Below are positions 38,001 to 62,665 of a stretch of DNA of 64,000 bases, piece by piece. Source of the DNA: Massalongia carnosa (taxonomy: Eukaryota); contig OZ287076.1 in assembly GCA_965645245.1 (NCBI GenBank), positions 1,240,001 to 1,304,000 of the forward strand, read 5' to 3'. Both the position numbers and the translations under genes were made by a program. The notes under the pieces were generated by a model. It worked only from the letters and a program-made list of their open reading frames with translations, did not search any database and had not been told where the DNA came from. The number at the start of each line of letters is the position of its first letter. Position 1 is the stretch's first letter.

Positions 38001-40262
38001 GGTTATGATCCAGACATTCTTACTGGATACGAAGTCCATGGCGGGTCATGGGGTTACTTGATAGAACGAGCCGGACATAAGTATGATTATAATCTCTGTG
38101 ATGAATTATCCCGTATCAAATCAGACTTTCGTAGTGCTGATCAGAAGAAAGATGCTTGGGGGTTCACCCAAACATCAACAATTCGTGTGACAGGCAGGCA
38201 CATGATCAACATCTGGCGGGCAATGAGAGGAGAGCTCAACTTATTACAATACACTATGGAGAATGTTGTGTTTCATCTATTGCATCGGCGTATACCTCAT
38301 TATTCATATAAGGACCTAACCTCTTGGTACAACAGTGGAAGGTCAAAGAATCTCGCAAAAGTCATGGGATACTATCTTTCAAGAGTCCAGCTTGACCTAG
38401 AAATCTTGGAACAGAACGAATTGATACCAAGAACAAGTGAACAGGCTCGTTTGCTTGGGGTCGATTTCTTTTCTGTCTTCTCAAGAGGCTCCCAGTTCAA
38501 GGTTGAATCGTTGATGTTCCGGATTGCAAAGCCAGAGAACTTCCTGCTCCCATCGCCAAGCCGAAAGCAAGTCGGGCAACAGAACGCTCTGGAGTGTCTA
38601 CCTCTAGTTATGGAACCCCAAAGTGCTTTTTACACTAGTCCTATGCTTGTGCTTGATTTCCAGTCATTATATCCGAGCGTGATGATTGCCTACAACTACT
38701 GTTATTCTACTTTCTTAGGTAGAGTCGTCAGTTGGCGGGGGCAAAACAAAATGGGATTCACAGATTACCAGAGAGAGCAGGGGCTTCTTGAGCTGTTTAA
38801 GGACCAAATCAATATTGCACCAAATGGCATCATATACGCGAAGCCAAGGATCCGGAAGTCCCTCCTTGCCAAAATGTTGGGCGAGATTCTCGAGACTCGA
38901 GTCATGGTCAAGAGCGGGATGAAGGCCGATAAAACGGACAAACCTTTACAGCGTCTACTCAACAACAGACAGCTAGCTTTGAAGCTTATTGCTAATGTTA
39001 CATATGGTTATACCTCGGCATCCTTCTCTGGACGGATGCCATGCTCAGAAATAGCTGATAGCATCGTGCAGACAAGCCGCGAAACTCTAGAAAAATCAAT
39101 TGCATTGATACACTCCATGGAAAAATGGGAGGCTGAGGTCGTGTATGGAGACACAGACAGTTTATTCGTTTACCTCAAAGGTAGAACCAAGGATGAAGCT
39201 TTCGATATTGGAAATGAAATTGCCAAAACAATTACGGACATGAACCCTCGACCGATAAAACTGAAATTCGAAAAGGTGTACTTACCATGCGTGTTGCTTG
39301 CAAAGAAACGGTACGTTGGTTTCAAGTACGAGAGCAAGACTCAAAAGGAGCCCGATTTCGATGCTAAAGGTATAGAAACAGTCCGTCGCGACGGTACGCC
39401 TGCTGAACAAAAGATTGAAGAGAAAGCATTAAAGATACTATTCCGCACAGCAGATCTAAGCGAAGTTAAGAGCTATTTTCAAAATCAATGCACTAAAATC
39501 ATGAGGGGTAAGGTTTCTATCCAGGATTTTTGTTTCGCAAGAGAAGTTAAACTCGGCACCTATAGCGAAAAAGGAGTCCCTCCTCCAGGAGTTCTTATCA
39601 GCACGCGAAGAATGCTGGAAGACCCTCGCGCGGAGCCACAGTATGGCGAGCGTGTGCCGTATGTCGTGATCTCCGGGGCTCCAGGTGCCAGGTTGATAGA
39701 TCGCTGCGTGGCCCCTGATGCGCTTTTGCACGACGATCAAAACGAACTGGATGCCGAGTACTACATAACTAAGAACCTGATACCTCCGCTAGAGCGTATC
39801 TTCAACCTCGTGGGAGCAAATGTCCGACAATGGTATGATGAGATGCCTAAATTTCAACGCATCCGCCGGATTGATGTAGGACCACTTGCTGGAGGCAATG
39901 ATTTGGTCATATTTAAGAAAACGCTAGAATCATACATGAAATCCTCCTCATGTCTTGTGTGCCGTGAAAAGCTGGAAGGAGAAGGGCCAATATGTACCAT
40001 CTGTATGCAAAGCGCGCCCGCCTCGCTCCTGGCCCTGCGCGTTAGGGAAAACAAAGCGGAAAAAAAGGCTATCAATCTTGAAAAAATCTGTCGGTCTTGT
40101 GCCAGCCTTGCCTGGGGCGAAGAGGTGAGATGCGATAGTAAGGATTGTAGCATATTTTACACGCGCACACGTTATATCACTGGTCTGCGCAACACACGGA
40201 TGGGTATGGAGCCCACAATGAGGATACTAGAGGGGATGGATAACGCTTCGCTAGAATGGTAA
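35023..40262 (+). CDS. REV3: DNA polymerase zeta catalytic subunit
   Basis: N-terminal VIRVFG..CAHIHGVFPY; family-B motifs LDFQSLYPS, QLALKLIANVTYGY and YGDTDSLF; C-terminal Cys clusters; one intron 35255-35304. Confidence 0.96.
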
Positions 40263-43955: not shown

Positions 43956-46900
43956 ATGTCCCACAACTATGGGGGAACCTCAAGCCGTAATGTAGACTTA
44001 GGCAGGTGAGCTTTGGTTTCACGAAAACACCGCTTCCTACAGTCAAAAGCCAGTTGAAGCTTATACATATCACTCCAGATCGGAAACGGAACTGGCAATC
44101 AATATCCGCAAAGCTACAAGCATTGGTCAGCTGTTCCTCACTCATGGTCAAATTTTTGGAACGTCGCGGACTCACTGAGAACTCCAGAGGAATCTGCGCC
44201 CAAACGTAAAGATCGTACCAAGTTGAACTCCAAGGTCAGCGAACTTATTGTTAATAGGCAAGCATGTACGTGCATGTATTGTGTATACTTGGGATCATAA
44301 AGCCTCGAAATCATTCTGGGAAGGCATGAAAGTGTGGGTCTCCAACGTTACGGCTTTACTGAGGCTACATGAAGGTCTTTCAATGTCGATTTGCGCTGAC
44401 AATTTTCCGCTGGTTAAGGCAACCTATCCTTGCTGATGAGGTTCAAACATTCAAGGCCCTGATCACTGTGCACAAGGTTTTACAAGAAGGGCATCCAATT
44501 GCGGTGAAAGAGGCGCAGGAGCATACTAACTGGATTGAAAGTTTGGTTAGAGTATCTGGAGATGGGCTCCGAGGTATGGACCGTCTGGTGCTTCCTTAAA
44601 GCCACATGTCTCCTGCCACTAAACTATTGATTGGCCTGGGGTTTCTGGAGAAGCTAATGGTTGGGGTAGGGTATGGTCCTCTTCTACGAGAATATGTCTA
44701 TTTCCTTCTGGCGAAGTTGGCTTTTCACAAACAACATCCGGAATTTAATGGTGTGTTTAAACTATGACGAACTTTTGCTAGTGCTTTGCTAAACCCATGA
44801 CAGGTCTTTTCGAATATGAAGAGTATATTAGCTTAAAGTTGATTAATGACCCTAATGAAGGGTAGGTCACCTCTATAGCTGCTCTAGAAAATTAAGCTGA
44901 ACGGGCGCTCAGATACGAGACTATTTCTGATCTAATGACTCTTCAAGACCAGATAGATTCCTTTCAAAAGCTTATCTTCTCCAACTTTCAAAGCGGTGCA
45001 AACAATGAGACTAGAATATCGGCCTTAGTTCCTTTAGTTCAGGAAAGCTACGGTATTTATAAGTTTGTCACAAGCATGCTTCGGGCAATGCATACTAGTT
45101 TGTAGCCTGTATTCATCTATCACAGGTTTTTGCTCACGACCATGTAGCCACAGGAGATGATGATGCCCTAGAGCCATTACGAGGGCGATATGATACTCAG
45201 CACTACCGGCTTTTGAAGTTCTACTACGAATGCTCAAATCTTCGATATTTGACAAGCCTAATCACGGTACCGAAACTACCGCAAGAACCTCCTAGCTTGC
45301 TTTCTGAGGAAGAAGACCGTCCTGCCTTGCCCCGAAGGCCTGCTAGAGAAATTGAAATTAGAGATGAGCCGACACCAACGCCGCCTCCTATTGCTACAAC
45401 ACTTGATCCGGAGCCTATCAACGAATTTTGGAAGGGTCAGCAGCAGCGCCAACAAGAAGAATACGATGCTGAGCAGCGAAGATTACAAGAACAGTGGAAT
45501 AATCAACAGTACCAGCAGCAGCTAGCACAGCAACAGGCCGAACGAGACTTCGAAGAGCAACGGCGATTACAGGCTGAGCAACAGCGACTTGCACAGGAGC
45601 AGCTTCTGCGAGATCAGTATCAAGCCCAAACGCAAGGCCGTATGGCAGAGCTTGAACGAGAGAATCTTAACGCACGAGCACAGTATGAGCAAGATCAGCT
45701 AATGTTAGAGCAATACGATCGGAGGATGAAGGATTTAGAAAACCAGCTGAACCAGCTAAACAGTAACTTCAGCCAGCAGACTACTTCAAAGGACGACCAA
45801 ATACGAGCTCTGCAAGAACAAGTCAATACCTGGCGGACCAAGTATGAAGCTCTCGCAAAGCTATACTCTCAGTTACGGCACGAGCACTTAGAGCTGTTAC
45901 AAAGGTTTAAAGGTGTACAGTTGAAGGCAGCTTCCGCTCAAGAGTCCATTGACAAACGAGAAAAGCTAGAGCGAGAAATCAAGACTAAAAATCTAGAGCT
46001 AGCAGACATGATTCGCGAAAGAGACAGAGCTCTCCATGAGAAAGATCGACTCACAGGTGGCAACAGAGAAGAGGTTGAGAAATTGAAGCGCGAACTCCGG
46101 TTTGCACTTGAAAAGGCCGAAAATGTAGAGCGGGCAAAGGGCTCAGAGCTTTCATCGATGCTTTCAAAGTATAACAGGGAAATGGCGGATTTAGAAGAAG
46201 CTCTTAGAGTAAGTCCTCTAACCGCACCTATTAAGCCATGCTAACAGCAAGTTAGAGTAAAACCCGAGCATTGGATGACATCCACTCGAAATACGCCGAG
46301 CGAGATGGCGATCTTGAGCGGAGCTTGCGCGAAAAAGAAGAAGAACTCGAAATCTATAAGTCTGGTATGGATCAGACACTCTTAGAGCTCAACGAGCTCA
46401 GAATGGTTAGTCACAAGTTCGATGGTGTTGAACTTAGCTCATGTATGGTAGAATGACGGGGACACCGATAAAGCCCTTGACGACCAGATTGACCAAGTGC
46501 TTCTCAGCAACATTCAAAAAATCCACGATATCATCGATTCTGTGCTCCTGGCAGGTGTACAACGCGTAGATGACGCCCTCTACGAACTTGATTCTTCGAT
46601 GCAAGCAGGAAATCAAAATGCTTCTGCGCCTTATGTTCTGTCCCAAATTGAGAAAGCCCAATCCAGCGCGACAGCCTTTTCTACAGCTTTCAATGATTTC
46701 ATCGCGGATGGACCCAATAGTCCTCATGCAGACATCATACGTACCATCAACGTGTACGCTGGCTCTATTGCAGACGTGTTAAGCAACGCGAAAGGACTAA
46801 CTCGCTTTGCCACGGAGGAAAAGAAGGCGGACCAGCTCATCAATAGCGCCCGGCAGTCTGCCCAATGTACTGTGAAGTTCTTCCGTGCTCTTCAATCATT

Positions 46901-47820
46901 CCGCCTTGAACCTCTTGAAGATACTCAGAAGACAGATGTCGTAATCAACAATGTACATGAGGTCCTGAAAAATCTCAACGACTTATCAAAGCTGGCCGAT
47001 GCATTCGTTCCCAAGTCCGGAAAGATTACAAATAAGTCTGGCGATATTGGCGACCTTGTTGATCGCGAACTTACGAACGCCGCTAAAGCCATTGACGCAG
47101 CTGCAGCGCGACTGAATAAATTAATGAACAAGCCAAGGGATGGGTATGATACGTACGAGTTACGGATACACGACAGTATCTTAGAGGCAGCAATTGCAGT
47201 TACCAATGCCATCGCTCAGCTCATCAAGGCTGCCACGATCTCACAGCAAGAGATTGTCAAGGAGGGTAGGGGTTCGTCGTCTCGAACGGCTTTCTACAAG
47301 AAGAATAATCGCTGGACGGAAGGATTGATCAGCGCTGCCAAAGCCGTTGCATCTTCTACCAACACGTTGATAGAGACTGCGGATGGGGTCATCAGCGGGA
47401 GCAGAAGTCCCGAGCAGCTCATCGTCGCAAGCAATAACGTAGCGGCTTCCACCGCACAACTGGTGGCGGCCAGCAGAGTTAAGGCAAACTTTGGTAGCCC
47501 AACGCAAGATCGACTCGAGGAAGCTAGCAAAAGTGTTCGGAAAGCTTGCAAGAGTCTGGTTCGACAGGTACAGGATATCATCGCACGACGAAACCAAGAC
47601 GACGATGAAGAGATTGATTACACGAAGCTGAGTAACACGGAGTTCAAGTCTCGGGAGATGGAGCAGCAGGTTTGTCTTGGGTTCTTTCTCATGGTTCGGG
47701 GACTGCACTATACTAACCACTGTTACCGTCCAGGTGGAGATCCTACAGCTAGAGAATAGCCTCACGCAGGCAAGGCAGCGACTTGGAGAGATGCGCAAGA
47801 TCTCCTACCAGGAAGATTAG
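43956..47820 (+). CDS. SLA2: Endocytic adaptor Sla2/End4 (ANTH, coiled coil, I/LWEQ)
   Basis: ELAINIRKATS, KHVRACIVYTWDH, FKALITVHKVLQEGHP, FYKKNNRWTEGLISAAKAVA and ASTAQLVAASRVKA motifs; many short introns; the canonical MAT-flanking gene. Confidence 0.95.
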
Positions 47821-48777
47821 ATACAGGATACCTCTGGATTGGAGGGGCTTTATGTACAGTAGATGTTCAGCATCCGCCCGACTACGGGGCTCCTCCATAT
47901 GCACACAAATGACGGCGTCCAGCGAAGAGTGGTTGCCAATTACAACGCTTGGCCACGAATGGACAGCTCTGAGTTGGGAGCCGTGTAGCATGAGCAGTAG
48001 GCAGATGGGTTGGGGAGGCGCGGTCCGGTAACATGGAGCAACATAGTTTCTCCCTGGAACACTTTTTGGCGCTGCGCTTGAGGAGCTGCAGCGACGGAAG
48101 GATCGAAGTGGTTCTCTGCCAGCGACGTGGCGTTTGCTCGTGCTGGTTTGGTTTCGGGCTTGTGTTTAGCTTTCTGCTTCAGCGGAAGCGATTCAAAACA
48201 AACCACCTTAAAGTGATATCGTTAACACGATTCTGCAACGTCCGAGAGGTTACGCAACGCCAGTTTATTTATCCCCTGTAGAGCTGCCAGCCTGCTTCCC
48301 GGCACCAGATGCAGCAGCGGAGGTTTGTGTTCCTTTCGTGACAGCTTCCCCTTCTGACAAGAAAGGTCTTGCTATCACAAGACCCTGGCCTGCGCATGCG
48401 TTCCGTGACCATTCCAGCCCATTCCAAAAGCCCGTAATAGTGCGGCAAGCCAGCAGGGCTACCAGCCCAGTCCAGGTCATGAAGGTTCAAAACTCAATGT
48501 GGACAGCTAGACGACCAAAAAGTGTTGCGAGGGGCATGATAGACAGAAGTGTGTACCACCCCTCCCCAAAAGTGGAGGGGAACATGGGGAACACGAGGAA
48601 AATGGGAAACATGGGGAAACTAGGAAAAAGTATTGAAGAAACAAAATGCTATGACGGGCTTTCTTTGTTTGTATTCACTTGTGAGACTCACCCCACCTCA
48701 CTAATTACCAGCAACCGAAACCATTACCGACTAGTGAATCAACGGTGAAATGTGACTTCCGGAGGACAAAGGACAGT

Positions 48778-48831
48778 CACACACACACACAGAGACACAC
48801 ACACAGAGAGACACACACACACATACACACA
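48778..48831. repeat. Compound (CA)n/(GA)n microsatellite
   Basis: CACACACACACACAGAGACACACACACAGAGAGACACACACACACATACACACA read directly. Confidence 0.9.
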
Positions 48832-49560
48832 AAATTAAGGGGGGGGGTTGTTTTGGGTGATCTAGGCCGGGTAGTTATTCTGAACTCGATACACAGTACG
48901 AAGTACTTAGTTAAGCGCTCGCGAGCAGGCTTTTTGGTTAGATTAGTACCACAAACCTACCCAAAGTTAAGCGCAACAACAACGACAACAACCAGCTTCC
49001 CCAACCTCATCGTGATGGCTCCGATCCAAGTGCCCCCGAACCTGCCTGTCGTGGAATCATGTCCGTTTCGTACGTAGATGGCCACAAAACTAGCTGATGA
49101 CAAGGACAATAAACCCCCGGGGGGGAAGGGGAGTTTCGGGCAGGGCGTTCTCGAATTGGGGATCTGGCCGTTTTTCTTCTCTGATGCTACTGGACGAGTG
49201 GAGCTTCCGCATCGTGAGTAAGATTCATGGAACCCTTTCTCTCCCTCCCCCCGCCTGTATGCCCCTCCAGTCATTATCCGTTGGTCGGTATCGTCTGGGA
49301 CTTTGTGAAAATGATAGACTTCGCTTTTGCCTGCCTGCCTGTCTGTATGGAAGAAGAAAAAGGGAGCTGATCCGCGAGGGGGTAAATCTGTCAGTCTGCG
49401 TCAGTTGCGTCGGCCGGGTTTGCATGGCTGCTGAGAAGGGATCTGGAATTCGGTTGTGTTCTTGGCCGAGTCCTTGCTTCCTGTCGCCCTACCTATCCAT
49501 ATCCCTAGACTTCCGCGGCTATGGTGGTCGAGGACCAGAAACAGGACGAGGAATGAGAGT

Positions 49561-49666
49561 TAGGGGTGGAACACGGGTAGGTAAGGCGGGGGAGGCTTGT
49601 GGTGATCTTATCCGTCATCAGGGAAGTATTTCATTAACCTAATCATGCAGCCCTAAGATAAATACA
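49561..49666 (+). repeat. MAT direct repeat, copy 1 (SLA2 side of the MAT1-2 block)
   Basis: TAGGGGTGGAACACGGGTAGGTAAGGC..GGTGATCTTATCCGTCATCAGGGAAGTATTTCATT..CTAATCATGCAGCCC..AAGATAAATACA; aligns with 52302-52407 with 3 substitutions and 3 small indels (manual alignment). Confidence 0.95.
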
Positions 49667-49870
49667 TGATGCAATGTTCTGACTCCACATCTTCCTACTT
49701 CATGGAAGAAGCTCTTTCCTCAGCTCTTTCCTCAGCGTGTATGGCTGTCTGCATTCCTTAAACCTTAGAGATTTACGGACCTATCATGCATCTTTGAGTT
49801 TTCATGATTCATACCGGCAGCTATAAGCCAGGTTTATTTTAGTCGGATACATGGTGATTAGTGCAATCAG

Positions 49871-50606
49871 TCAGGTTTTGTTGCGCCTCCAGGTTTTGAA
49901 CAAGCTCTTACGGCTCAAGGATCGAATGTTTTGTATCAACATTGATTGCTCCAAAGCCTGAGTAGGGCCTAAAAGCGTTTCTTTGGCCGCAACTTGGTTT
50001 TTCAGATTAGTAATATAAAAGTACGAACAATTTATGGAGACTTACACCAAGCGTTCAATGAATCTGTGTCAGCTTGTATGTGTCTAGCAAGAAATTCACT
50101 CTCTGCTGGGTTTGGCACTCCATGTTTGGTGTAGAACTCCTCAAGGATAATCTGGGTCCCTGGCGGAATTTCACGGGGAAAGATGCCGGCAAGTTGACCC
50201 GAAACCTTCAGTGAGCTAGACGCTGATGTTAGCCACAGGTGTTGGTTACAAATATCTATTAGATGCCGTACTCTTCTGCCTTAATGAGTAGAAGTCTTCC
50301 TATCCTATCAAAACTATCATCCTCGGTACTGAGGATCGTGTTGAGCAGTCGCTGCTGTCCCTTGAACATCCTGTTAAATGCTGCAAGCATCTTCACATTT
50401 ACACGAACCCTCGACGGAAGAACTGCTTCTCGAGCCATAGATATCGGAACAGAAGAAGGACTCTCGGATGCTGAGTTCTCTTTGCTTGGTGCATGCTTGC
50501 TTAAGATTTTGTCAAGCTCTGAGATTTTTTCTCGGAGACGTCTTCTAGACTTCGCATTATTTCGCTTATGGAAGATTCTTCCAAGCCGAGTTTGTGTGGA
50601 AAACAT
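49871..50606 (-). CDS. Putative auxiliary MAT1-2 idiomorph gene, divergent from MAT1-2-1
   Basis: 115-codon first ORF (MFSTQTRLGRIFHKRNNAKSRRRLREK) followed by GT..CTAAC..AG and GTAAGT..CTAAT..AAG introns; lies inside the repeat-bounded block. The 3' exon structure is ambiguous (stop at about 49871 or 49908). Confidence 0.55.
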
Positions 50607-50978
50607 TGGGTATAAAAGATCAAGTCTGAGGTAATCTGAGAATGAACTTGTGGATACCGCTCGTGAAAATGATATAAATGGAGGATTGAGCGTCTTCTCT
50701 CTGGAATAAGAGCCCTAGGTTTGTGTTGAAAGGTGTGTTTTGAAAGTGAATAAAGAAATCACTAGCCTGTTTCTTTTTAGGACATATTGTGATCACTACA
50801 AATTCCCGCTTCAACCCCATTCTGACCGTCACCTTTCATCATCCATACAATATCTTCAATCTTTGCTTCTCCACATTCAGTCAACATCTTCAGGATACCG
50901 GCTATCTTAGGACCTCAGCTTATTCCTTTACATATTCACCTAGCACTGAGCTCTAAAAATCCTGCCTTGTTTATAATA

Positions 50979-52142
50979 ATGGCAGCTCTCGCAATTCAAG
51001 CCGCAAACACGATCTGGGGGCAAGCAGAGAGGGTTATTAATGAAGGGCGCGCTACTAAGATCTCACTTCCTGTTCTAACGCAGTTGCGCATTGGAAAAGT
51101 AGGAATTGATATCATCAAGGCCAAATACAGGTAGTTTTACTCACTCTCTTGACGTTCTGGTTCAAAGACTAACGTGAACCAAGCGAACTAATCCAAGCTG
51201 AAGTTATAACTAGAGTCACTGCTGCTGGACTCTTACAATTCATGCCTCCCAACAACACTTGGGGCCCTGTTTTCAATCCAGCAGAAAAAGTGGTAGATTC
51301 TAAGAAATCTAAACTCCCTCGTCCTCCCAATGCTTTTATATTATATCGCCAGCAACATCATCCTTCCATAAAGGAAGCCTATCCTGATTTACATAATAAT
51401 CAGATTTGTAAGAACCTATATCTTACCAAATCTAACGGTGCTAATCTGCGACAGCCATCATTCTAGGCAAGCAGTGGAAGAACGAAGACAAAGCCACTAA
51501 AGATATGTTTAAGCGTATGGCCGAGGACCTAAAGAAGAAGCACTTCGAGGAGAATCCCGGATACCACTATCAACCTCGAAAACCGACCGAGAAGAAGCGT
51601 CGTATGACCCGCCGAAAACTAGATACAATTTGTAAGAGTGCTAGCACTCATGTCGAGTCATCTACTGAATTAGCTTCTGTTGAGACATTCCAGGCGGATG
51701 GCAATTCAACTGCCTTGCCAGACATTGAGACCATAGAGGCTGGAAATGCTGCTGTTACCTATGGCGACGAGACTATCGACGATGAGTCATTTGAGGCTAT
51801 GCTTAAGCACTACAACTCCACTATTCCGGATTCTGGCCCACACCATGGAAAGAGCACCGCTATCTACACAGAACGTACTGCCGAGGCTAACGAGAATATT
51901 ACACTGTATGGAGCAAAATGTTTTGATGATATCTTTCTCGGTCCCACCCAGCAGGAATCTCTAGCAGAGCTAGATCGAATTCTTGGGCCTATCGAGAAGC
52001 TGGATGAGGCCTGGGATACTTTGGATGGCTCGCAGCAAGCGCAGATTTTGAGTCCAGACTTCGATTTTGGTAAGGGCGATTCCATCCTTGGTTTATGGTC
52101 TAACGTTTTAAAGACTCTTTTTTTGAGAAACTTACCTTCTGA
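50979..52142 (+). CDS. MAT1-2-1: HMG-box mating-type transcription factor
   Basis: KLPRPPNAFILYRQQHHP..NNQI|SIILGKQWKNE..HFEENPGYHYQPRK with the conserved Ser-codon intron (51408-51454); 5' intron 51131-51183; probable 3' intron 52070-52113. No stop codons or frameshifts after splicing. Confidence 0.95.
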
Positions 52143-52207
52143 AGGAGCTCGTGTCTTCAAGGTGTTCACACCCGATACATGGCATTTAAATACATCTCCC
52201 CCTCCTT

Positions 52208-52305
52208 CTTACAACTCACCTCACATACAAATCCCAGGTACTTGTACCTCGGAATGCCCCCTTTTACACATCCCCTTACAACTCACCACACATACAAATC
52301 CTAGG
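52208..52305 (+). repeat. 31-bp near-tandem duplication at the MAT1-2 / repeat-copy-2 junction
   Basis: CTTACAACTCACCTCACATACAAATCCCAGG (52208-52238) versus CTTACAACTCACCACACATACAAATCCTAGG (52275-52305), 2 mismatches. Confidence 0.85.
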
Positions 52306-52407
52306 GGGGTGGAACACGGGTAGGTAAGGCGGGGAGGTTTGTGGTGATCTTATCCGTCATCAGGGAAGTATTTCATTGAACTAATCATGCAGCCCAAGAT
52401 AAATACA
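52302..52407 (+). repeat. MAT direct repeat, copy 2 (between MAT1-2-1 and MAT1-1-1)
   Basis: Same-orientation copy of 49561-49666. Confidence 0.95.
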
Positions 52408-52951
52408 GGACTGAGTTTCTCCGTATAAGTCTACCGGTACTCCAACAAAGATCTAGCCATTGGCGGGGATTATGAAGAAGCTACAGTAAAGCTCCTAATT
52501 GAGGAGATTGTACCTCTACATTTATTATATTTTCCTCACTTCATATCAGCTTTAATACTATCTCATTTCTAGTACCGTTGCTTCATGTTCTCCTAATTGC
52601 ATTCTAGCATCTGGAGCTACCTACTAAGAGAATCGGCAGAAGGGGATGCTATTTCCATGGAATGTGACTTTGAGCATATCTTCTAGCAGTCCCACGCTAA
52701 TATCCGCCCATCGCCAGTGAAGGAAAACTAGATACTAGCCAAGTCATTTATCTACAGTAACCGTTGATCATTCCTAGCCATCGTTCAATCCATCAATTAA
52801 TTCGTTGTTTTCTTGAATACCCAAAGCTCCTATTTCAGTACTAATAGGAGCATAGCCAACACAACCGGTAAAAGGCATATGCTGCAAGAAAATGACTATG
52901 GTTTGTTAGCTTTCCGAGAGAATTAGGGTGTTAATGTATTTGCGTTGGCTT

Positions 52952-54185
52952 TTAAAGGGGTTCTTCAAGGACCCATTCGCTCATGTTGAAATCAAACGGA
53001 CTAAGACAGCTAATGTTGATAGCATCAAAACTATACCGATTGGCTGGATCCCAGGCTGCTGAATCCAAAAACTGTGCAAACTCGTCATCAAACTCATAAT
53101 GACCGTTAGAGCTGAGATCCCTAGTGATCGTGGAGGTGTTCGCAACAACGTTAGCTCGGTGGGCAGTGTTGGCTTGCACAACATTTAGGGTGCTTGAAAT
53201 TCCTGTATGGGGGGCTGTATTAACAACATTTAGATTGGTCGCATTTGGACTTTGAGTAGGGAATGCCGAGGCTCCAGCTGCATTCTTATCAGTCTGGACT
53301 AAAAAATAATAACCCCCTACATTACTTACAAGTATTACCAGCAATCTGAACAGGTCCTTGAAGACCCGTAGAACCATTTCCAGCGGTAGCGCTATGGTGA
53401 CTCGCACGAGTTATAGCTGAAGAACCAACCGATTGTGCAGAATTCGCCATTGCCAAGGTAGCTTGATGATTCGGGCGGTCGAAGCTATAGCCGTCGGCCA
53501 TATAACCCGCGTTGAAGCTATTTTGGATTACATCCTCAACTGAGGCATTAGTGATGAGCGTTTGGTTATCGAATCCTTGATCATGGAAGCAGTTTGTACG
53601 GCGCAAGGTAGTGTGCCCGGCACTATTAGCTGCGACCTCCCATCCATAAACGACCAAGTACATGTCCGGGGGGGTGATCCCCACAAAAGGCGCATTGATT
53701 GCGAGGAACTTATCCAATGGAGCCTTCTCTTTACCAACCTGATCGCGAATCACGGAGAATGCTTTTGCAATGATACTCCATTTACCTTTAGAATTTTCTG
53801 CCTGCCAAAGATGCGTTAGGAACCCAGAGATATCTTTCTGCTGAAAACTCGTAAAGATGCAAGCATAATAAGCTTAGATCAGTTAGCGTATGGCTACAAG
53901 TTGATCTATTAGACACTTACTACGATACGCCATCCAAGAATTAAGAGGACGAATCGCCTTAAAAATAACCGCATTCACTTCGGGAAGTTTCTTTGTATCT
54001 TTACCATGAAGAGCTGAAATGGCCACAGCTGTGCTAGGTCCGGTCTCAGCGGCTGGTTGAAGCAATGTAGAACCCTGGTTGGTGGCCAAGGAGTTAAGGA
54101 TATTTTGAGCTGCGATAGTCATTTTTTCAACCTGGTGAGGGTTCAAAGAGGCGAATACCCGCTGAGCTGCAGGTGACATGTTCAT
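52952..54185 (-). CDS. MAT1-1-1: Alpha-box mating-type transcription factor (about 377 aa)
   Basis: IRPLNSWMAYR|TYYACIFTSFQQKDISGFLTHLWQAENSKGKWSIIAKAFSVIRD with the conserved alpha-box intron (53920-53873); a second intron 53329-53278 joins the 52952 ORF in frame. Start is 54185 or 54179. Confidence 0.95.
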
Positions 54186-54584
54186 TTCCTTAGAGGTGGG
54201 AAGCTCTTTAGAGAATATTGAATTCAAGCTATGATATGAAGTAGGGTTGCAAGAAATCCGGAGATGTGGAGGTGCAAGAGCAAATGAGTTGTGGATGAAG
54301 AGAGAGTTGGAGGAAGTTGGAAGAGGTTGGATGATTCTTGGTTTATTTATAAGTTGGAGTTTGTGTTGATGTTAGGTGAATTTGTGATGAGACTTTCTTT
54401 GTGCCAGTGAGGCGGAGGCAGACGCATCCAAAAACAAATGGGAGGCCGATCATTTAGTCTCCTTTTATCTTCATGCAAAGAAACACTAACTCTGCTTTAC
54501 AAGTTCTCGTCAATCCATAATTGTTTTCAAAGGTTTTATCAGTTTCAAATTGTCATTTCCTAATACTGTGTGAACCATCCCTCC

Positions 54585-55794
54585 CTACTTCCCAGAGACT
54601 GGAAATTCGTTCACGACGACAGCAGCTCTAGATGCTGTTTCCTGTATTCTTTCAGGGCGCTCTAATGAAATTAGCATCCTTCCTACATTCCTAAGTTATG
54701 GGGGGGGGTTTTACGGAAACTATTATTCAGCGACTCTAAGCTTGACATATTGTTTTTAGCCAACGGACGTACAAAGTCTCCGTCATAGCCAGGAAATGGT
54801 GGTAGAATTTTATGAGCCTATTTATCATTAGTAAGAGAAGCCACAGGTTTTTATGGTGCTTGATACCAAGGTTACTATACGGGTACTTTGTTTAGCGGTG
54901 GTCCATGTTTGAGTGGGGCTCTGATATATGTTAGCTATTCTATTAACCAAGTTCGGTGCAAATAATATGATGGGCTCACCGAGATTTCTATTGGATTCGT
55001 TTTGCGCTACTAGAGGATTAGGGAAGTTCGTTAGGGATAGGGCGATCCTCCATGCATATGAACTTACAGTTCCAAGTGCCTGAAGGACAGATCGACGGTC
55101 TTCCTTCATCTTATGTATAATAAGCTTCGCCGCGGTTGGTATAACTTGAATGCTCCCAGCTTCAGGCTTATACCAGTCATCATATCCACCTTCTTGTGGA
55201 TTGTTGTGGAGGAACTGCTGCCAGGATTTTCGCTCTTCAGTTTCGTCAAAAAGAAAAATGTCGGTGAAAGACTCTTCAATAGATTCATGAAAGATGTCTC
55301 GCGCTTCTGAGATCTTGTCCATTTCTAAATCAACTTTTATGAGAGTATCACGGATTTGAGAAACGTCGTAATTAAAATATTCTTCAACGATCTTGCTGGC
55401 AAAAAGTTCTGGATGTTTGTTTAGCCGTTCGATCTCCGGAATAGAGATATCTAAGCACTGAGTAATATTCTTCTCGTTGTGTTCGGGAAAATTAATATGC
55501 GCAAAGATCGCCACAAGGAGATTGAATTTGATGCATCGCAGAAAGTGGTTGCTGCAAGGATAGGAAATGCCGAACGTATCTAGTGGTGTCAAACAAGTCT
55601 ACAGCATTATGGAAAATGTTCTCACCTTTGACAGTGCCTTTATTTTCATCCTCGAAAGTCAGAGGCTCAAGGTTAGGTCTTTTTAAAGTCCGACTGACTT
55701 TGATCCACTCTCGATCTACCGACGCAAGGAATTCAGCATCCGAAAGCTCATTCTTAGATAGCTTGAATCGACGTTTCACCCTGGTAGTAGGCAT
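54585..55794 (-). CDS. Putative auxiliary MAT1-1 idiomorph gene between APN2 and MAT1-1-1
   Basis: ORFs 55492-55794 and 54828-55592 join in frame through a 46-nt intron 55625-55580; two further GT-AG introns extend the frame (AHKILPPFPGYDGDF..FPVSGK*). No domain recognised; the call rests on position. Confidence 0.65.
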
Positions 55795-56084
55795 AGTTGC
55801 AACGGTAGGACAAAGTCAAGATCCTAGAAGCAGCTTTGATTGCCATACAAAATAGTTAAGGCGGAGAAGAGATGTTTACGAACCAACGAAACAGTTGGGC
55901 TTTTCGCAACTCTATTTAAAGTGATGTTTAAGTGAATGAAGAAGCTATAGTCATATCGGAGCTTCAATAGTCGCTAGGTTGTGAATGGGGTAGAGCCTTG
56001 AGGAATGCACACTAACAGATCCACACATCCAGATTTTTTTGAGGGGGTAATTTTGTTAAATAACATAATTCACGATTTCGCTTG

Positions 56085-58288
56085 CTATGCTTGAGCCACC
56101 GGTTCCGAATGAGGCAAACAGTCTTCATGGACTGAATTCTTTGCAGCAATCGCATTCCAATCGCTGCACCAAATGAAGGTTTGGCATCGCCACTGGGTAT
56201 TCCTTTCCTTGGACCCCGTGGGTCCTAGCGGCCGTGGGCACATCCAGAACGATCTCCCGCAGTTGATGCCGCTCTTCCTTGTCAGGAAGCTGACACATGG
56301 CTCGCGGTGCCCCTCGCACCGCGGCGCCGCTGGTTTAGCGAAAAGCTTGAACCATGAATCTTTGGACTCCACGGGGTCGTGCACGGTTTCTTGACTTTGA
56401 GAAGTGCCTCCGTCGTGATCTGCTTCGTTTGTCTCGACAAAGGACATTGACTCTTTATCAGAGACTCGCGGCGAAAGAGCCGCTGGAGATAAGAGTGTTG
56501 AAGTCAGTTGATTGGTATTGGGAATATTAAACATGTCTGCCGTCCTGGCCGTTTGCGGAAGATTGTGTCTGGGGATACTTTTGTCTGAGCCTAGCTGCGA
56601 TGCAACCATCTCTAGATCAAGAGTGGCGATGCCGCTAATAGAGCCAGATGCGCCTTTGGGTTTGAAGAAGCCTTTGAGGCTTTGTTGTTGACCCTTTGAA
56701 CTAGCTACAGGCATTGTCGCGGTAGACCCGACCTTTGCTCGCTTCAACGATTTGGCATTAACACCCTCGCCCAAAAGCCGTTTGTTGTCTGTTGGTGACA
56801 GTGACTTGGCTGGGTTCGTTCCCGTGGTTTCACATTCGGTTCTAGATGAGCGTGTTCGTTGAAGCGCCTGTTTACCTGCCAAGGGTGGCTTGGAAAGCCA
56901 AGTTGAAGAAGTACCAATATCTGCTTCTGGGCTAGGAATACATTTGCACTGTTTAGGGGCGAGAGAAGGTTTCCGGTTGAACATATCACGGATGCTCCTT
57001 CGACCGTCAAATTCGGGGATCAGCTTTCCAGATAGAGGCAGGATATCTTTGGTAGAGTATTCTCTCTGACGCTGACCATGCAAGAACATCCCAGTAGGGT
57101 TCATTACATCCAACAAACAAACATACTCCCCATCAATCAAAACTTTATTATTCATAGTCGCATAGACAGGGCAATGATCTGACCCCTGTTCGCTCGAGTT
57201 AGCGAAGAAGCTCCATTCTTATTCATATAGAAATAATACCATAAGACCCTCCTGTATGTTGGAGCCAGAAAACCATCCCTTCATCGCTAGACTGCACAGC
57301 ACATAATCAATTCTAGAACCATAGTTTCCAGGCCTTGCATTGGTCTTTTGCTCCCAGCAGGTGAACATGCCTTTTCGACCTGGGTGGAACTCGCGACAGA
57401 TATCCCACAAAACTGGCTCCTCCCTCCCCTCGTCCCTTTCTCCAAAAACCTTGCCACCCTCTAGAAGCTGATTGAATAGACGTCTAGAAGACGTTGAGAC
57501 ATACTCCTCCGCCGTCATACCCATTTTCCGCATCGATGTTTCGGCATTGGCCGTGTCGAGTTCTTCTCGAGATATGTTGAGGTCCCCAGTCAATATGACT
57601 TTCTTACCAATCGACACCAGGTTTCGAATACGTGCATCCAGCAGATTGAGAAACCCAAGCCTATACTCATCCCTTGACTCGTCCCTGTTCGCTGGACTGT
57701 ACACACCCAAGAGCACAAAAGCAGGAAACTCGAGTATTACGCATCGTCCTTCGGAGTCTACGGTGGCAGCATCGACTGCTGAATTGGCAAGTTGAGCCGG
57801 AGTAGGATAACCTCCAATTTGTTGATTCGCTGAGAGATCTGAGAAGCGTGTCGACGAGTTCGGCGGGCAAAGGACCCCTGTGATACCTTCCTCGGCGCGA
57901 ATTGGTGCGCAGACTGATTGCTTCGTATATATTACTACTCCAGAATAACCTAAGCGGTGTTAGTCGTCTCCTTTAGACCATGACGATTGAAGCCGCACCT
58001 TTTTTATGCCTTGGTAAACTCCAATAGCAGTCCCACCCTTGAACAAGCACCATGTCATCGCGTAAATCCTTCCTTTGGATCTTGGTCTCTTGGAAGATGA
58101 CTATATCAGCTTCCAAGATCTCGAACATTGCCTCGAAAGTCTTCTTGCTCCCCCATGGTTGATACTGAAATGGATTCCGTATGCCATTGACTGCTGTGCA
58201 TTAGCAGAATAGCCCATAAATCCAGTGTTAGATTATAGAAGCGTAAGAATCACTAACCATTCCAGGTGGTTATACGTAGCGCCATCAT
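56085..58288 (-). CDS. APN2: AP endonuclease / DNA lyase 2
   Basis: LRITTWN|VNGIRN, FQETK, GYSGV, DSEGR, GDLN, GSRIDY and GSDHCPV motifs plus a C-terminal GRF zinc finger (CEGHREPC..GRSFWMC..CQTFIW); the canonical MAT-flanking gene. Confidence 0.96.
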
Positions 58289-58590
58289 ACAATCTGTGTT
58301 TTCCGACGCTTCATGATTTCCGTGTTCACTGGCGCATCATGCAGCAGACGCCATAGCCCAGTGAACAACCTATGTGAAATTTTAACACTGCTGGTATGAG
58401 AATTTACCTACTTGCCAGATGAAATAAAGCCTGGAAATACTTCTTCTCTGTAGCCTCCTATCACACACTCGCGATGTTTACTACCACCTACGTCATAGGA
58501 GAGTTAAATGCGCGCTTAACAGGCATATTAACTCCAAGACCCCGAACCACACTCCGTTACTTCAATTCAAGCTCATTGCTAACCCTCATC

Positions 58591-59389
58591 ATGCTCTCAA
58601 GGCAAGCCCTACTGCGCGCGAAGCAGTGTACGAGTCAACGGGCTCCTACTATACTCTTACGCCATACCCTCCAGCGCCGCTCAGCGAGCGGAGGAGGCCC
58701 TCCACTTACAGGCGCTGCGGACAACGCATTCAACAGGGAAAGAGCAGCAGTAAAGGCACATGCTGCTAAATCTGCTGGTATGGATGCTACATTATTTTTA
58801 CTCTATAAATTATAAGACTAACCCAACCATTCTCTAGACACCTGGCGGAAACTGTCTATATAGTGAAACCTCAATGTACCTCTAACGGTTTGGCGCGAAA
58901 GGCTTACGCATGATAGCGTTGTCATCCCTTGCCTGATTCTCGCCTCACTTAATGCGTATAACCTCTGGAACGAGCATTGGGAGCACTGGGATCATCTACC
59001 CCCACTTGAGGAACGGATAGAATACCCGTACCAGAACATTAGGACCAAGAACTTTTTCTGGGGGGATGGTGATAAGGTTGGTCTCTCCTCCATTTTTATG
59101 CTTAATGAAACCCGAAGGCTAATCATTCAATTTATCAGACTCTCTTGTAAGTAATAGCCTTCCTTTATAAAAGGTGTAAACTACGAGTGCGTGTACAAAC
59201 TGCACTAAAAGTTGCGAATGTCAATTTGCGATCCTAGTATTTTTTCGAAGTAGTAATCATATTCAATGGACTGGAGGCGTTTGGCGTATCCTTTGGTTTT
59301 CTCTTAAGTACTACGCAGAAGAAGCTGTGCGCTAATGCGTACATTCTAGTTGGAATCCAAAGGTAAACTATCACAAGAAGGATGTCTGA
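58591..59389 (+). CDS. COX13: Cytochrome c oxidase subunit VIa
   Basis: DNAFNRERAAVKAHA, TWRKLS, EHWEHW and EYPYQNIRTKNFFWGDGDK|TLF|WNPKVN motifs; 8-nt exon 59139-59146. Confidence 0.93.
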
Positions 59390-59691
59390 AAGCGGTAAGG
59401 TAAATGCTGCGCAAAGGAGTGGTTAAGGTAGCGGATTCTATTTTGCACATTGATTCTATTGAAGAAGACTTGCGGAATGAGTAGACCATGTCATAACTGG
59501 AGTTCTTGAGTGTTTTTCTGTCATACGGTGTTTGTACGCATATCGACTCGATAACTCAATTCAATTCGACGCTAATTTTTGCAATGCTTGCCATGTGTGA
59601 AAACCCAGGTTTCATCGAGTTGTATCTTACGTACCTTTTTGTCGAGATCTATTTGACCATTCGAGCGCTCAGCCCACTTAGCAGCACCTGA

Positions 59692-62322
59692 TCAAAATTC
59701 CTCGTATGCAGACCTCTTGATATCCAAGTACTTTGCTGCACAATCGTTGGCGAGTACCAGATCCCTATTCAAATGCATGATCGTAGCCTTCTTTGCCATC
59801 ATCTCACACTGTCCCCGGACATCTTCTATCTTCGAGAACTCGTCAAAGGATAGATCAATACAGTTTAAGGCTTTGGTCAGTTGTTCTTTTCGTTGTAAAC
59901 TCTCGGCTTTCGCTTGCCCAGCCATTCCCATATGGGCATCCGCGAGAAAGCAAAATGTTTGTCCTGCCAGATCACAGTCTTCGCATTCAAGCATCTGAGG
60001 CACAATGCTCTCTAGTAGCTTCGCAGCTGGTCCAAACTCTTTGATGCTAATCAGGACCCCACACACTGCACCAACCGCTTCCCAAAGTCCTGGTAAGATC
60101 ATGGATCGATGCGCAAGGCTCGCAGCGCGGAGGGCAACCGAAAACCCTTTCTGTGGAATACCAGCTTTGTCGAATATCCGTGCCTTCACGGTCATGATTT
60201 TGACTCGTTGGGCAATATCCGCTTCTTGATCAGTCAATTTCATGGCAAACTTCTCGAGGATAGCCATAGCTTCGGAGAAATTTTGGTATCGTATTTGTAA
60301 ATCGATCTCGAGTATGGTCATGGTGAAGAGCATATCCTGGCCGAGATAGGGGATCGCTTTGATTTGGGAGAGAGTATACTCTGCAGCCACTAGGTTGTTT
60401 CTATTTAAAGATAAGCAGCTTCATGAACGATGATGGAGGTGCTCCAACCTGTGAAGATGTCGCTGCAGCTTCAGTATCCCCATAAAAGCGACCCAGTATT
60501 GGTGATACTTGAGTGTGCGCAGAGATTCCTGGTCGACATCCTCCAAGCGTGCGAAAGCGTCATCATAACGACCCTTTTGAGCAAGCTATTGAGGGTGTCA
60601 GAATTGGTATGCGGGTATTTGTATCAAAGTACGGACTAAATATGCACTTTTACAAACACAATGTACGATATCCTCAACAGGAGAGTGGGCTACATAGCAT
60701 TGAAGAAAAAGCTCCCCGAACAGCCAGGACTGGCAAGCCACGCCTGATCTCAAGTTAGAAACCAAGATTTCTGTTGTATTTATAGAAAAACTCCATACCA
60801 AGTCTACCAAATATAGAAGACTGCATCATCATTTGGCTGCCAATAGCATTTATCACGTTCTTCGTCACGTTCAAATGGGATGCCTTCAAAAGACACTCAA
60901 ATGCGTACGAAACACTGCTTCCCTATCAGAATCCTCAGAATATTAGATGATACTTTACCACGTGCTGGGGATTAGAATCTAGGAGCGAGTACGCACATTG
61001 CTGAGCGTAAGCTTGGCTTCGCTCAATAAAGATGTGCTCAGAAGACTCCACATGTTAGTCTCCTTGGCTTTAGCTTTAAGAAAAGCCAATGCTCCCTTGT
61101 CTGAACCCAGGACCCCTTTTTCCTGGACTGCGCCCATCTCCATGGGATGTGCTTTAGCAAAATGATACAGCCAGCTGAGGCTGTAGTTCAAGCATCCCAT
61201 GTCATTGTTTTCTCTCGCTGTGGAGATGGTTTCTTGCATTGCCACAATGGCTTCGGAGTAGCAGCCAAAGTCGGCGTGAAGAATCGCAAGGTTAAGCAAT
61301 GCATACTGGTAAAAGGTACGATCCCGGTTATGCATAGTGTAATCAAAGTACCGATGGAGATTGTCAAACGAAGAATAATAGTCTCCTGCTTTCCATGAAT
61401 CGAGAAACCTGGGTTAGGTCAGAGCTAGAAGCTATGAAGGACGAGAGATAGTTATACTGCACGTAATGCGAAAGACTAGGAACTGTGACACCACTTTGGA
61501 CCATTTTCAGAAGTTGCTCTTTCATAAGCTGAGGGAGTCTATTTCCCATTTCTACACATAAGTTGAGTATATCAAATCTCATTGTAGAATGCGGCAATCT
61601 TGCGTACTTTGCATTTGTTCAACCTGATACTCAAGGAGTTTCTCTAAATCATTAGTACTAACGCTTGCTTCATGTCGGGTATTATCTAGCATGTCGCCAT
61701 AGACAAGACCCGTCAGGCAGGCGCTTAAATCAAAGCTGTCTTCTTGAAGGTTGGCGTCAAAAACAAATCTTCCTACAGCTGGCTTTCTCCTTTTCCATTG
61801 AGAGAACGTTGGGGTTCGGTAATTGACAAAGCTCTTCCAGAGTATGATGCCATCATGAAACTTTAGCCTTGTATATTCAAGCTGAGCCCTTCTGACAAAA
61901 GCACCCAACGGAGAAATTCTAGATAGTAGGATAGGTTTTTGATTTGTGGTTCTGTCACTGTCGGCATTTCTTTGCGATCTCTCGTCCACCTTCTCAAGAA
62001 GAAAGGAAAGTGTATCAAAGAAAGAATGAAGAGCGTCAAAAGAGTTGATATCCCAAAGTTTTTTAAGTAGTAAATCCCAAATGGTGCGTCCTGGTATGCC
62101 AGAGGCCAAACTGATAGTGGCCTTCTGGAAGCTATCAATTGAAGATGTGAAGTTACGGTATGGTGCAACGGCATCGCCAGCGCACAACGGCTCGATCGGC
62201 AAAATGTGCGTGATCAGGAATGAAAGAACAGGAATTGTTGCGGCGGATGGTACAACGGATTCTGCATAGAGCGATATCAACGCAAGAAATCCTATCCTGG
62301 ACGGCGTCAAGTAACGTGACAT
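59692..62322 (-). CDS. APC5: Anaphase-promoting complex subunit 5
   Basis: MSRYLTPSRIG, PGRTIWDLLL and LHRYFDY..YQYALLNLAILHADFG..ARENNDMGCL motifs; several introns; usual neighbour of COX13/APN2. Confidence 0.9.
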
Positions 62323-62665
62323 GATCTGGGTCTGACTGAAACTCGGTCGAAGGGAATGTTAAGGTAAGGTGAAGGTAAAAAGTATGCGAGGAGGAACTTT
62401 CGACAGTAGGATGATATGATACATATTCTAGAGCGCTCTTACATAGGTGTCTAACCAAAACTGTTGCTTGGAATCTTGCTGCAATCTTTAAGTTGTTGAC
62501 AGACGTTGGAACTGTCAAGGGGTATATGTGATAAGTTCAAGCAAAGCATCGACGGTACGGCACAACTAAATTAGATTTCTTAAGTATACACAATACTACA
62601 CTATAGAGATTCAAAAAAGTCATGACCGTCCGGCTGATAATACGCCTTTGGTTCTATAAAAAGGG

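Follow-up and report, generated by a model that had tools for sequence, protein, structure and literature searches.

Gene content of the MAT1 locus

A 64,000-nucleotide (nt) stretch of DNA from Massalongia carnosa, covering positions 1,240,001 to 1,304,000 of contig OZ287076.1, was analyzed for its mating-type (MAT) locus MAT1. This whole stretch is referred to as the window, and all coordinates are given within it. Between the flanking genes SLA2 and APN2, four intact genes were found, namely the two core genes MAT1-2-1 (HMG box) and MAT1-1-1 (alpha box) and one auxiliary gene for each of the two idiomorphs (Table 1). The HMG_box domain was identified by Pfam on the plus strand, where it is interrupted by an intron (51173-51466, E 4e-9; 51445-52323, E 3e-5), and the MATalpha_HMGbox domain on the minus strand (53322-53873, E 8e-32). 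Together with the intact spliced models, these domains confirm the claim of an earlier note on this DNA that both complete idiomorphs reside at one SLA2-APN2 locus. The span named there, 49871-55794, corresponds to the region from the stop codon of the MAT1-2 auxiliary gene to the ATG of the MAT1-1 auxiliary gene.

The spliced models were built manually and by exhaustive scans for GT..AG introns. None of the four models has an internal stop codon, every intron is of the GT..AG type with a length of 44-56 nt, and the introns of the HMG box and the alpha box coincide with breaks of the reading frame in the related loci L003, L005, and L015. The description of both core genes as full length, with conserved introns and free of disabling lesions, holds for the open models of 377 amino acids (aa; MAT1-1-1) and 339 aa (MAT1-2-1) with their canonical introns. 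For MAT1-2-1, retention of the last 44-nt intron would give an alternative protein of 414 aa ending at 52323; the 339-aa model is favored because the third exons in relatives comprise 220-235 aa. The two core genes are convergent, and under the 339-aa model their stop codons are 809 base pairs (bp) apart, in agreement with the distance of about 810 bp noted before. No further MAT-like gene was detected anywhere in the window, and no MAT1-1-1 remnant was found left of the MAT1-2 auxiliary gene at E values up to 10.

Furthermore, a direct repeat of 105-107 nt, the two copies of which are about 95% identical, brackets a 2.74-kilobase (kb) segment with the MAT1-2 auxiliary gene and MAT1-2-1. This bracketing of the MAT1-2 half is the new element of the locus.

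The gene order in the window, as assigned by Pfam, is REV3, a PH-domain gene, SLA2, the MAT region, APN2, COX13, APC5, and CIA30. The window represents nuclear DNA of a fungus and shows the canonical neighborhood of a mating-type locus, and both core genes lie on this one 64-kb section of a 2.26-megabase (Mb) contig.

Table 1. Features of the MAT1 locus and its surroundings in the window.
Feature	Position	Strand	Details
REV3	35259-40262		Left of the PH-domain gene and SLA2; Pfam
SLA2, 3' exons (left flanking gene)	44363..47820	+	Pfam ANTH, I_LWEQ
Direct repeat copy 1, 107 nt	49563..49669		Interpreted as the terminal part of the SLA2-side flank
MAT1-2 auxiliary gene, 208 aa, possibly homeodomain-like	49871..50606	-	3 exons: 50606-50272, 50215-50046, 49992-49871
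MAT1-2-1 (HMG box), 339 aa	50979..52142	+	Exons 50979-51130, 51184-51407, 51455-52069, 52114-52142
31-nt direct repeat, 94% identity	52208..52305		52208-52238 and 52275-52305; repeat search of the window
Direct repeat copy 2, 105 nt	52306..52410		Between the two idiomorph-derived halves; novel joint 52305/52306
MAT1-1-1 (alpha box), 377 aa	52952..54185	-	2 introns; exons 54185-53921, 53872-53330, 53277-52952
MAT1-1 auxiliary gene, about 306 aa	54828..55794	-	Exons 55794-55626, 55579-54828
APN2 (right flanking gene)	56085..58200	-	Pfam Exo_endo_phos
COX13 (COX6A, +) and APC5 (-)	58423..62358		Usual neighbors past APN2; Pfam COX6A E 1e-28, ANAPC5 E 2e-38

Sequencing depth and linkage of the two idiomorphs

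The locus is present in five public runs from three studies, of which the four runs X1, X3, X4, and X5 were examined. Depth was read from Logan contigs, which are built from 31-letter words. In X1, it amounts to 465.9 on the left flank, 478 on the MAT1-2 part, and 468.8 on the MAT1-1 part with the APN2 flank. The corresponding values in X4, a lichen metagenome of a separate study, are 26, 26.3, and 28, and X3 shows about 830-920 all across. Compared to the window, X4 carries 35 single-nucleotide polymorphisms and 3 insertions or deletions (indels) in 9.5 kb, none of which disrupts a reading frame.

These data bear on the possibility that the fusion is an artefact, in which the assembler joined two opposite-mating-type genotypes of one thallus. 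Thalli with several genotypes occur, as described for triploid-like Letharia thalli with both idiomorphs (PMC10512270), and the joint sits at a repeat, where assemblers can err. However, a mixture of genotypes would lower each idiomorph below the depth of the flanks. The three samples, which come from two studies, all show a ratio of idiomorph to flank depth of about 1.0, which argues strongly against a mixed thallus. The earlier note had proposed half depth of each idiomorph as the observation speaking against a fusion; with the flat depth in X1, X3, and X4 the fusion was not refuted.

The paths through the contigs point in the same direction. In X1, contigs chained by 30-nt overlaps cover 49606-52335, 52306-52377, and 52348-57500, and contig 14 of X4 (49606-52368) leads from within the MAT1-2 part over the novel joint into repeat copy 2. 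The right end of the MAT1-2 part continues solely into copy 2, with the variants of this copy, and never into the APN2 flank; the MAT1-1 half and the APN2 flank form a single unbranched contig in X1 as well as in X4. Contigs break only at the direct repeat and at a (CA)n tract. A 39-nt core, which is identical in both repeat copies, has a depth of 47.8 in X4 vs. 26-28 elsewhere, and the 72-nt X1 contig on copy 2 has a depth of 574, close to the value of about 571 calculated under the assumption that 9 of its 42 words have double depth. The artefact is largely refuted and would be highly improbable, and we have hardly any doubt that the fused locus is real. It is single-copy, with both gene sets on one molecule at equal dosage, and is present in separate samples. 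The tandem order is the sole linear arrangement consistent with the dosage and matches the 2.26-Mb source contig.

The (CA)n-type microsatellite is located at 48769-48838 in the spacer between SLA2 and the MAT region, and the contigs of all examined runs end there. In X5, both halves are covered patchily and at low depth (0.51 of the sampled words), and the interpretation of X5 as a run missing an idiomorph was rejected on this basis. This run is deposited under a different organism label, yet contains 99%-identical sequence of both halves. In addition, many loose contig ends of X3 and X5 on 48000-57500 adjoin GATC, which suggests proximity-ligation (Hi-C-like) libraries.

Comparison with single-idiomorph loci

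Metagenome contigs were scanned with SLA2, which yielded 80 loci, and these were searched with the exons of the window by tblastn. The 24 loci with an SLA2 identity of 83-88% were considered as Lecanoromycete-like. Among them, 12 carry MAT1-1-1 only, 6 carry MAT1-2-1 only, 4 are too short, and 2 (L015 and L016) carry both. No Teloschistaceae locus is among the 80 loci.

Among the 12 MAT1-1-only loci, 11 contain a match to the MAT1-1 auxiliary gene (23-31% identity) at the same place and on the same strand (the contig of the twelfth ends early), while the 6 MAT1-2-only loci contain none. Conversely, exon 2 of the MAT1-2 auxiliary gene has a match of 37-40% identity at the same place in every one of the 6 MAT1-2-only loci, whereas the 12 MAT1-1-only loci show no such match. 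A conserved block of this gene, with an intron directly after a tryptophan, is common to four lineages. As the matches of the auxiliary genes are idiomorph-specific, each half of the window represents a complete idiomorph of the usual Lecanoromycete kind, and the retention of one auxiliary gene per idiomorph, as noted earlier, is substantiated. The gene content and orientation of both halves are those of the single-idiomorph relatives (18 loci).

In heterothallic Lecanoromycetes, the idiomorphs are described as MAT1-1-1 with MAT1-1-7 and MAT1-2-1 with MAT1-2-14 (PMC10512270, PMC11515122, PMC6414310). Each half of the window resembles such an idiomorph in gene content, order, and orientation, its auxiliary gene being the putative counterpart of MAT1-1-7 or MAT1-2-14 by layout. 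In the window, the halves stand in tandem, and the interval from the MAT1-2 auxiliary gene to SLA2 is free of the MAT1-1-1 remnant described for several families.

The MAT proteins share only 40-50% identity with those of relatives, and APN2 shares 77-80% with the APN2 of related loci. One heterothallic comparator species is represented with both idiomorphs, by L004, L008, and L080 (3.87 kb) and by L005, L007, L010, and L023 (2.31 kb). This species also supplies the closest counterparts of both core genes, with 74% identity in the HMG exon for MAT1-2-1 and 49-50% for MAT1-1-1. On the SLA2 side, its idiomorph ends within the 3' region of the MAT1-2 auxiliary gene (L005:14066-14138 vs. L080 up to 14060), so that a remnant of the 3' end of this gene is retained in its MAT1-1 strains.

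Two loci of a distant class, L061 (about 12766) and L063 (about 13417), show an alpha-box match adjoining the HMG gene. They were rejected as fused homothallic loci, since in-frame stop codons in the alpha box identify them as MAT1-1-1 remnants in MAT1-2 idiomorphs.

The MAT1-2 auxiliary gene is possibly homeodomain-like. In the ESM Atlas it is placed with homeodomain clusters at 0.80, and its profile matches the ZHX2 homeobox in the PDB at E 0.09, which are weak leads and not proof. They are in line with reports of a domain resembling a homeodomain in some MAT1-2 auxiliary genes (PMC6414310). For the MAT1-1 auxiliary gene, recognition in the ESM Atlas is below the threshold and the matches are meaningless. 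Its counterpart in the source annotation is a 228-aa model (P0121), and a protein search returned this model and two hypothetical proteins, and nothing else. Pfam gave nothing credible for either auxiliary gene down to E 10.

Phylogenetic placement

Named proteins reach no more than 87% identity to the C-terminal exon of SLA2; the four best are from Teloschistaceae, and Physciaceae, Parmeliaceae, and Umbilicariaceae follow with 85%. In the SLA2 trees, the window forms a long branch within a clade of Teloschistaceae, Physciaceae, Brigantiaea, and Letrouitia (Shimodaira-Hasegawa-like approximate likelihood ratio test, SH-aLRT, 90-92). In the case of REV3, the organism's own protein was found with 100% identity, the next proteins with 89-90%, and named Teloschistaceae and Usnea with 85-87%. 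The REV3 trees place the window inside a clade of 11 rows (SH-aLRT 100 and 97), separate from the clade formed by the Teloschistaceae (SH-aLRT 100 and 99). For both genes these are quick single-gene trees without bootstraps. A link of the REV3 clade to the Physciaceae was sought via L017-L020, and no REV3 match longer than 450 aa is contained in these loci.

These trees support the placement of the organism as a Lecanoromycete near, yet outside, the Teloschistaceae. As SLA2, REV3, and both auxiliary genes match those of the relatives, the latter in an idiomorph-specific manner, the assignment to a lichen fungus of this class, which had been presumed from the layout of the auxiliary genes, is corroborated. 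The terminal branches of the window are long, with 0.25 for REV3 (35259-40262) and 0.14-0.15 for SLA2 (46452-47669) compared to medians of 0.03-0.08. This may reflect either a fast-evolving lineage or a sampling without close relatives.

Direct repeat and probable origin of the fusion

The two copies of the direct repeat differ by 4 substitutions and 2 one-base indels, and the longest identical run comprises 39 nt. In the window the repeat occurs in two copies only, and in the 80 related loci it was not found, with just a 16-nt match at chance level. Copy 1 is located about 200 bp past the stop codon of the MAT1-2 auxiliary gene, at the expected SLA2-side boundary of the idiomorph. On the APN2 side, no flank duplication of at least 20 nt was detected in the window. 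The second copy of the 31-nt direct repeat ends exactly at the joint. Short direct repeats which end at the joint are often seen at illegitimate junctions.

The 105-107-nt repeat looks like the duplicated end of the SLA2-side flank, which would have been left behind by unequal or illegitimate recombination of chromosomes of opposite mating type. In this scenario, a MAT1-2 chromosome and a MAT1-1 chromosome would have recombined out of register, with one break at the right end of the MAT1-2 idiomorph and the other about 105 bp within the SLA2-side flank of the MAT1-1 chromosome. From these break positions, a product would result which contains both idiomorphs and the last 105 bp or so of the flank twice. 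The idiomorph sizes deduced in this way, 2636 bp and about 3.4-3.7 kb, are close to the 2.31 and 3.87 kb of the comparator species. Unequal exchange at MAT loci had been put forward before in other cases (PMC3583454).

The copies of the repeat have diverged by about 5%, vs. about 0.4% between the two individuals, which suggests a fusion that predates the diversity sampled. Since the frames of 1.0-1.1 kb have stayed open since the fusion, a rough argument for selection can be made from this very small sample.

The arrangement of the repeats would also allow the MAT1-2 half (2.74 kb) to loop out at low frequency, giving rise to self-sterile derivatives with MAT1-1 only. This is suggested by the direct repeats, which bracket exactly the MAT1-2 auxiliary gene and MAT1-2-1. 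To our knowledge, unidirectional switching of the Ceratocystis type has not been described in any lichen. In Ceratocystis, the loss of MAT1-2-1 has been attributed to recombination of identical flanking repeats (PMC4500084), and Ceratocystis fimbriata (Wilken et al., 2014, via PMC4500084) resembles the window in carrying the genes of both idiomorphs with direct repeats flanking the MAT1-2 part. In contrast to the identical repeats of Ceratocystis, those of the window are short and non-identical, with a longest identical run of 39 nt. No MAT1-2 depth deficit was seen in X1, X3, and X4, and neither deletion derivatives nor deletion joints were seen, though contigs of 31-letter words could not have shown such a joint. 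Loop-out at this locus seems rather improbable. If it did occur, a self-fertile lichen fungus would yield MAT1-1-only derivatives that depend on outcrossing, which would be a unidirectional switching of the Ceratocystis type.

Expected self-fertility and the alpha box

As the alpha-box and HMG factors are both encoded in every haploid nucleus, self-fertility, i.e., primary homothallism, is expected. The window carries a real fused MAT1 locus that probably confers primary homothallism, with expression and self-fertility deduced from the structure of the locus. The joint claim that the locus confers self-fertility and originated through out-of-register recombination is assigned a probability of roughly 70%.

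Several points weigh against it. Contigs built from 31-letter words do not resolve the phase over the 39 identical nucleotides of the core, and a single molecule spanning it was not seen, so that the linkage rests on the dosage, the lack of any other path, and the source assembly. Visible microhomology at the joint does not exceed about 4-5 nt, and 49563-49669 is presumed to represent shared flank. None of the five public runs matching the locus is recorded as RNA. Within the species, the four genes together show 7 nonsynonymous and 4 synonymous differences, which are too few to show constraint. Finally, the alpha box (53784-53798) reads ENSKG instead of DPFKA as in relatives across classes; the extended motif is ENSKGKW in the window vs. 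DPF[KQ]AKW in 9 of 12 distinct relatives, including other classes. In total, 7 of the 43 columns that are otherwise invariant differ, four of the seven in this one motif.

The altered motif raises the possibility that the fusion is real and one of the core genes is nonfunctional as a mating-type factor, in which case the fungus would be MAT1-2-type or unisexual. MAT1-1-1, with ENSKGKW in place of the widely conserved DPFKAKW, would be the likelier candidate gene. The 4 nonsynonymous vs. 3 synonymous differences of MAT1-1-1 within the species do not indicate strong constraint, and Xanthoria parietina is reported to behave as a unisexual fungus that carries only MAT1-2 (PMC6414310). However, the 377-aa frame of MAT1-1-1 is open with both introns canonical, and its Pfam score of 110.5 bits is similar to the 113.3 bits in L015. 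Of the 43 alpha-box columns without variation among 10 distinct single-idiomorph relatives, the other 36 are retained. The ENSKG motif is identical in X1, X3, and X4, and the four nonsynonymous differences all lie outside the alpha box and break no frame. The branches of this lineage are likewise long for SLA2 and REV3, so that rapid change is not a special trait of MAT1-1-1. A loss of function of one core gene is considered unlikely, and two functional gene sets, and with them primary homothallism, are preferred.

Relation to known homothallic systems

Idiomorph fusion at the ancestral locus is a textbook route to primary homothallism in the Pezizomycotina. For Cochliobolus, Yun et al. are said to have attributed the fusion, in 1999, to recombination of opposite-type chromosomes at short stretches of identity. 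As in the window, both idiomorphs are reportedly joined there at the ancestral locus between the usual flanks. Whereas the core genes of Cochliobolus are said to be fused into one frame, the window holds four separate genes and a duplicated 105-nt piece of the flank.

Self-fertilization in lichen fungi has been debated for decades, and behavioral homothallism was previously known in Xanthoria. Single-spore isolates of Xanthoria elegans with both mating types are reported, and fingerprints of spore progeny had suggested widespread homothallism in lichen fungi, as described in PMC6414310. In a survey from 2019, all 39 of 39 Lecanoromycete genomes are given as heterothallic (PMC6414310). Homothallism in a few Teloschistaceae is attributed to White et al. 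(2024, Genome Biol Evol evae094, as cited in PMC11515122). By this citation, the homothallic loci of the Teloschistaceae occur in the same class of lichen-forming fungi as the window, with both gene sets in one genome. They differ in that the organism of the window is placed outside this family in the REV3 tree.

The earlier note had regarded the locus as a departure from the heterothallic pattern of the class. Such a departure is no longer unprecedented (PMC11515122, PMC6414310). The layout is rare, yet already reported in the class, and the window adds a further lineage outside the Teloschistaceae. It provides a chromosome-scale example with complete gene content, independent samples, and a readable footprint of recombination. 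Together with a contrasting second architecture in another lineage (L015 and L016), it offers a concrete system to ask how often, and by which route, selfing arose in lichens. The joint permits simple polymerase chain reaction assays for population surveys. If loop-out of the MAT1-2 half were true, the two architectures would mean that Lecanoromycetes shifted their mating systems repeatedly and by different routes.

A fusion of opposite order in L015 and L016

The loci L015 and L016 stem from two metagenome assemblies, with 10 mismatches between them over 21,218 bp. Their order is SLA2, MAT1-1-1, an open reading frame of the right-type auxiliary gene, the left-type auxiliary gene, MAT1-2-1, and APN2 (L015:13679-19689). 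The frames are open, and the alpha box (E 1e-32) as well as the HMG box, with both of its halves, were identified. In the SLA2 and REV3 analyses, both loci group with the MAT1-1-only loci L013 and L014 in a Lecanorales-like clade.

Like the window, L015 and L016 are complete Lecanoromycete fusions with both auxiliary genes between SLA2 and APN2. Unlike in the window, the MAT1-1 half is next to SLA2, the loci belong to another clade, and no flank duplication was found in them. The opposite order suggests a separate origin of this fusion. The order agrees with the place at which several families carry a MAT1-1-1 remnant in their MAT1-2 idiomorphs, as described in PMC11515122 and PMC10512270.

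In addition, a motif of about 30 nt (core ACCAACCTCCTC) occurs three times in L015 (15121-15155, 18208-18240, and 20359-20391). Its copies have two orientations and are located close to APN2 and to the starts of the MAT genes. It may represent a shared regulatory element.

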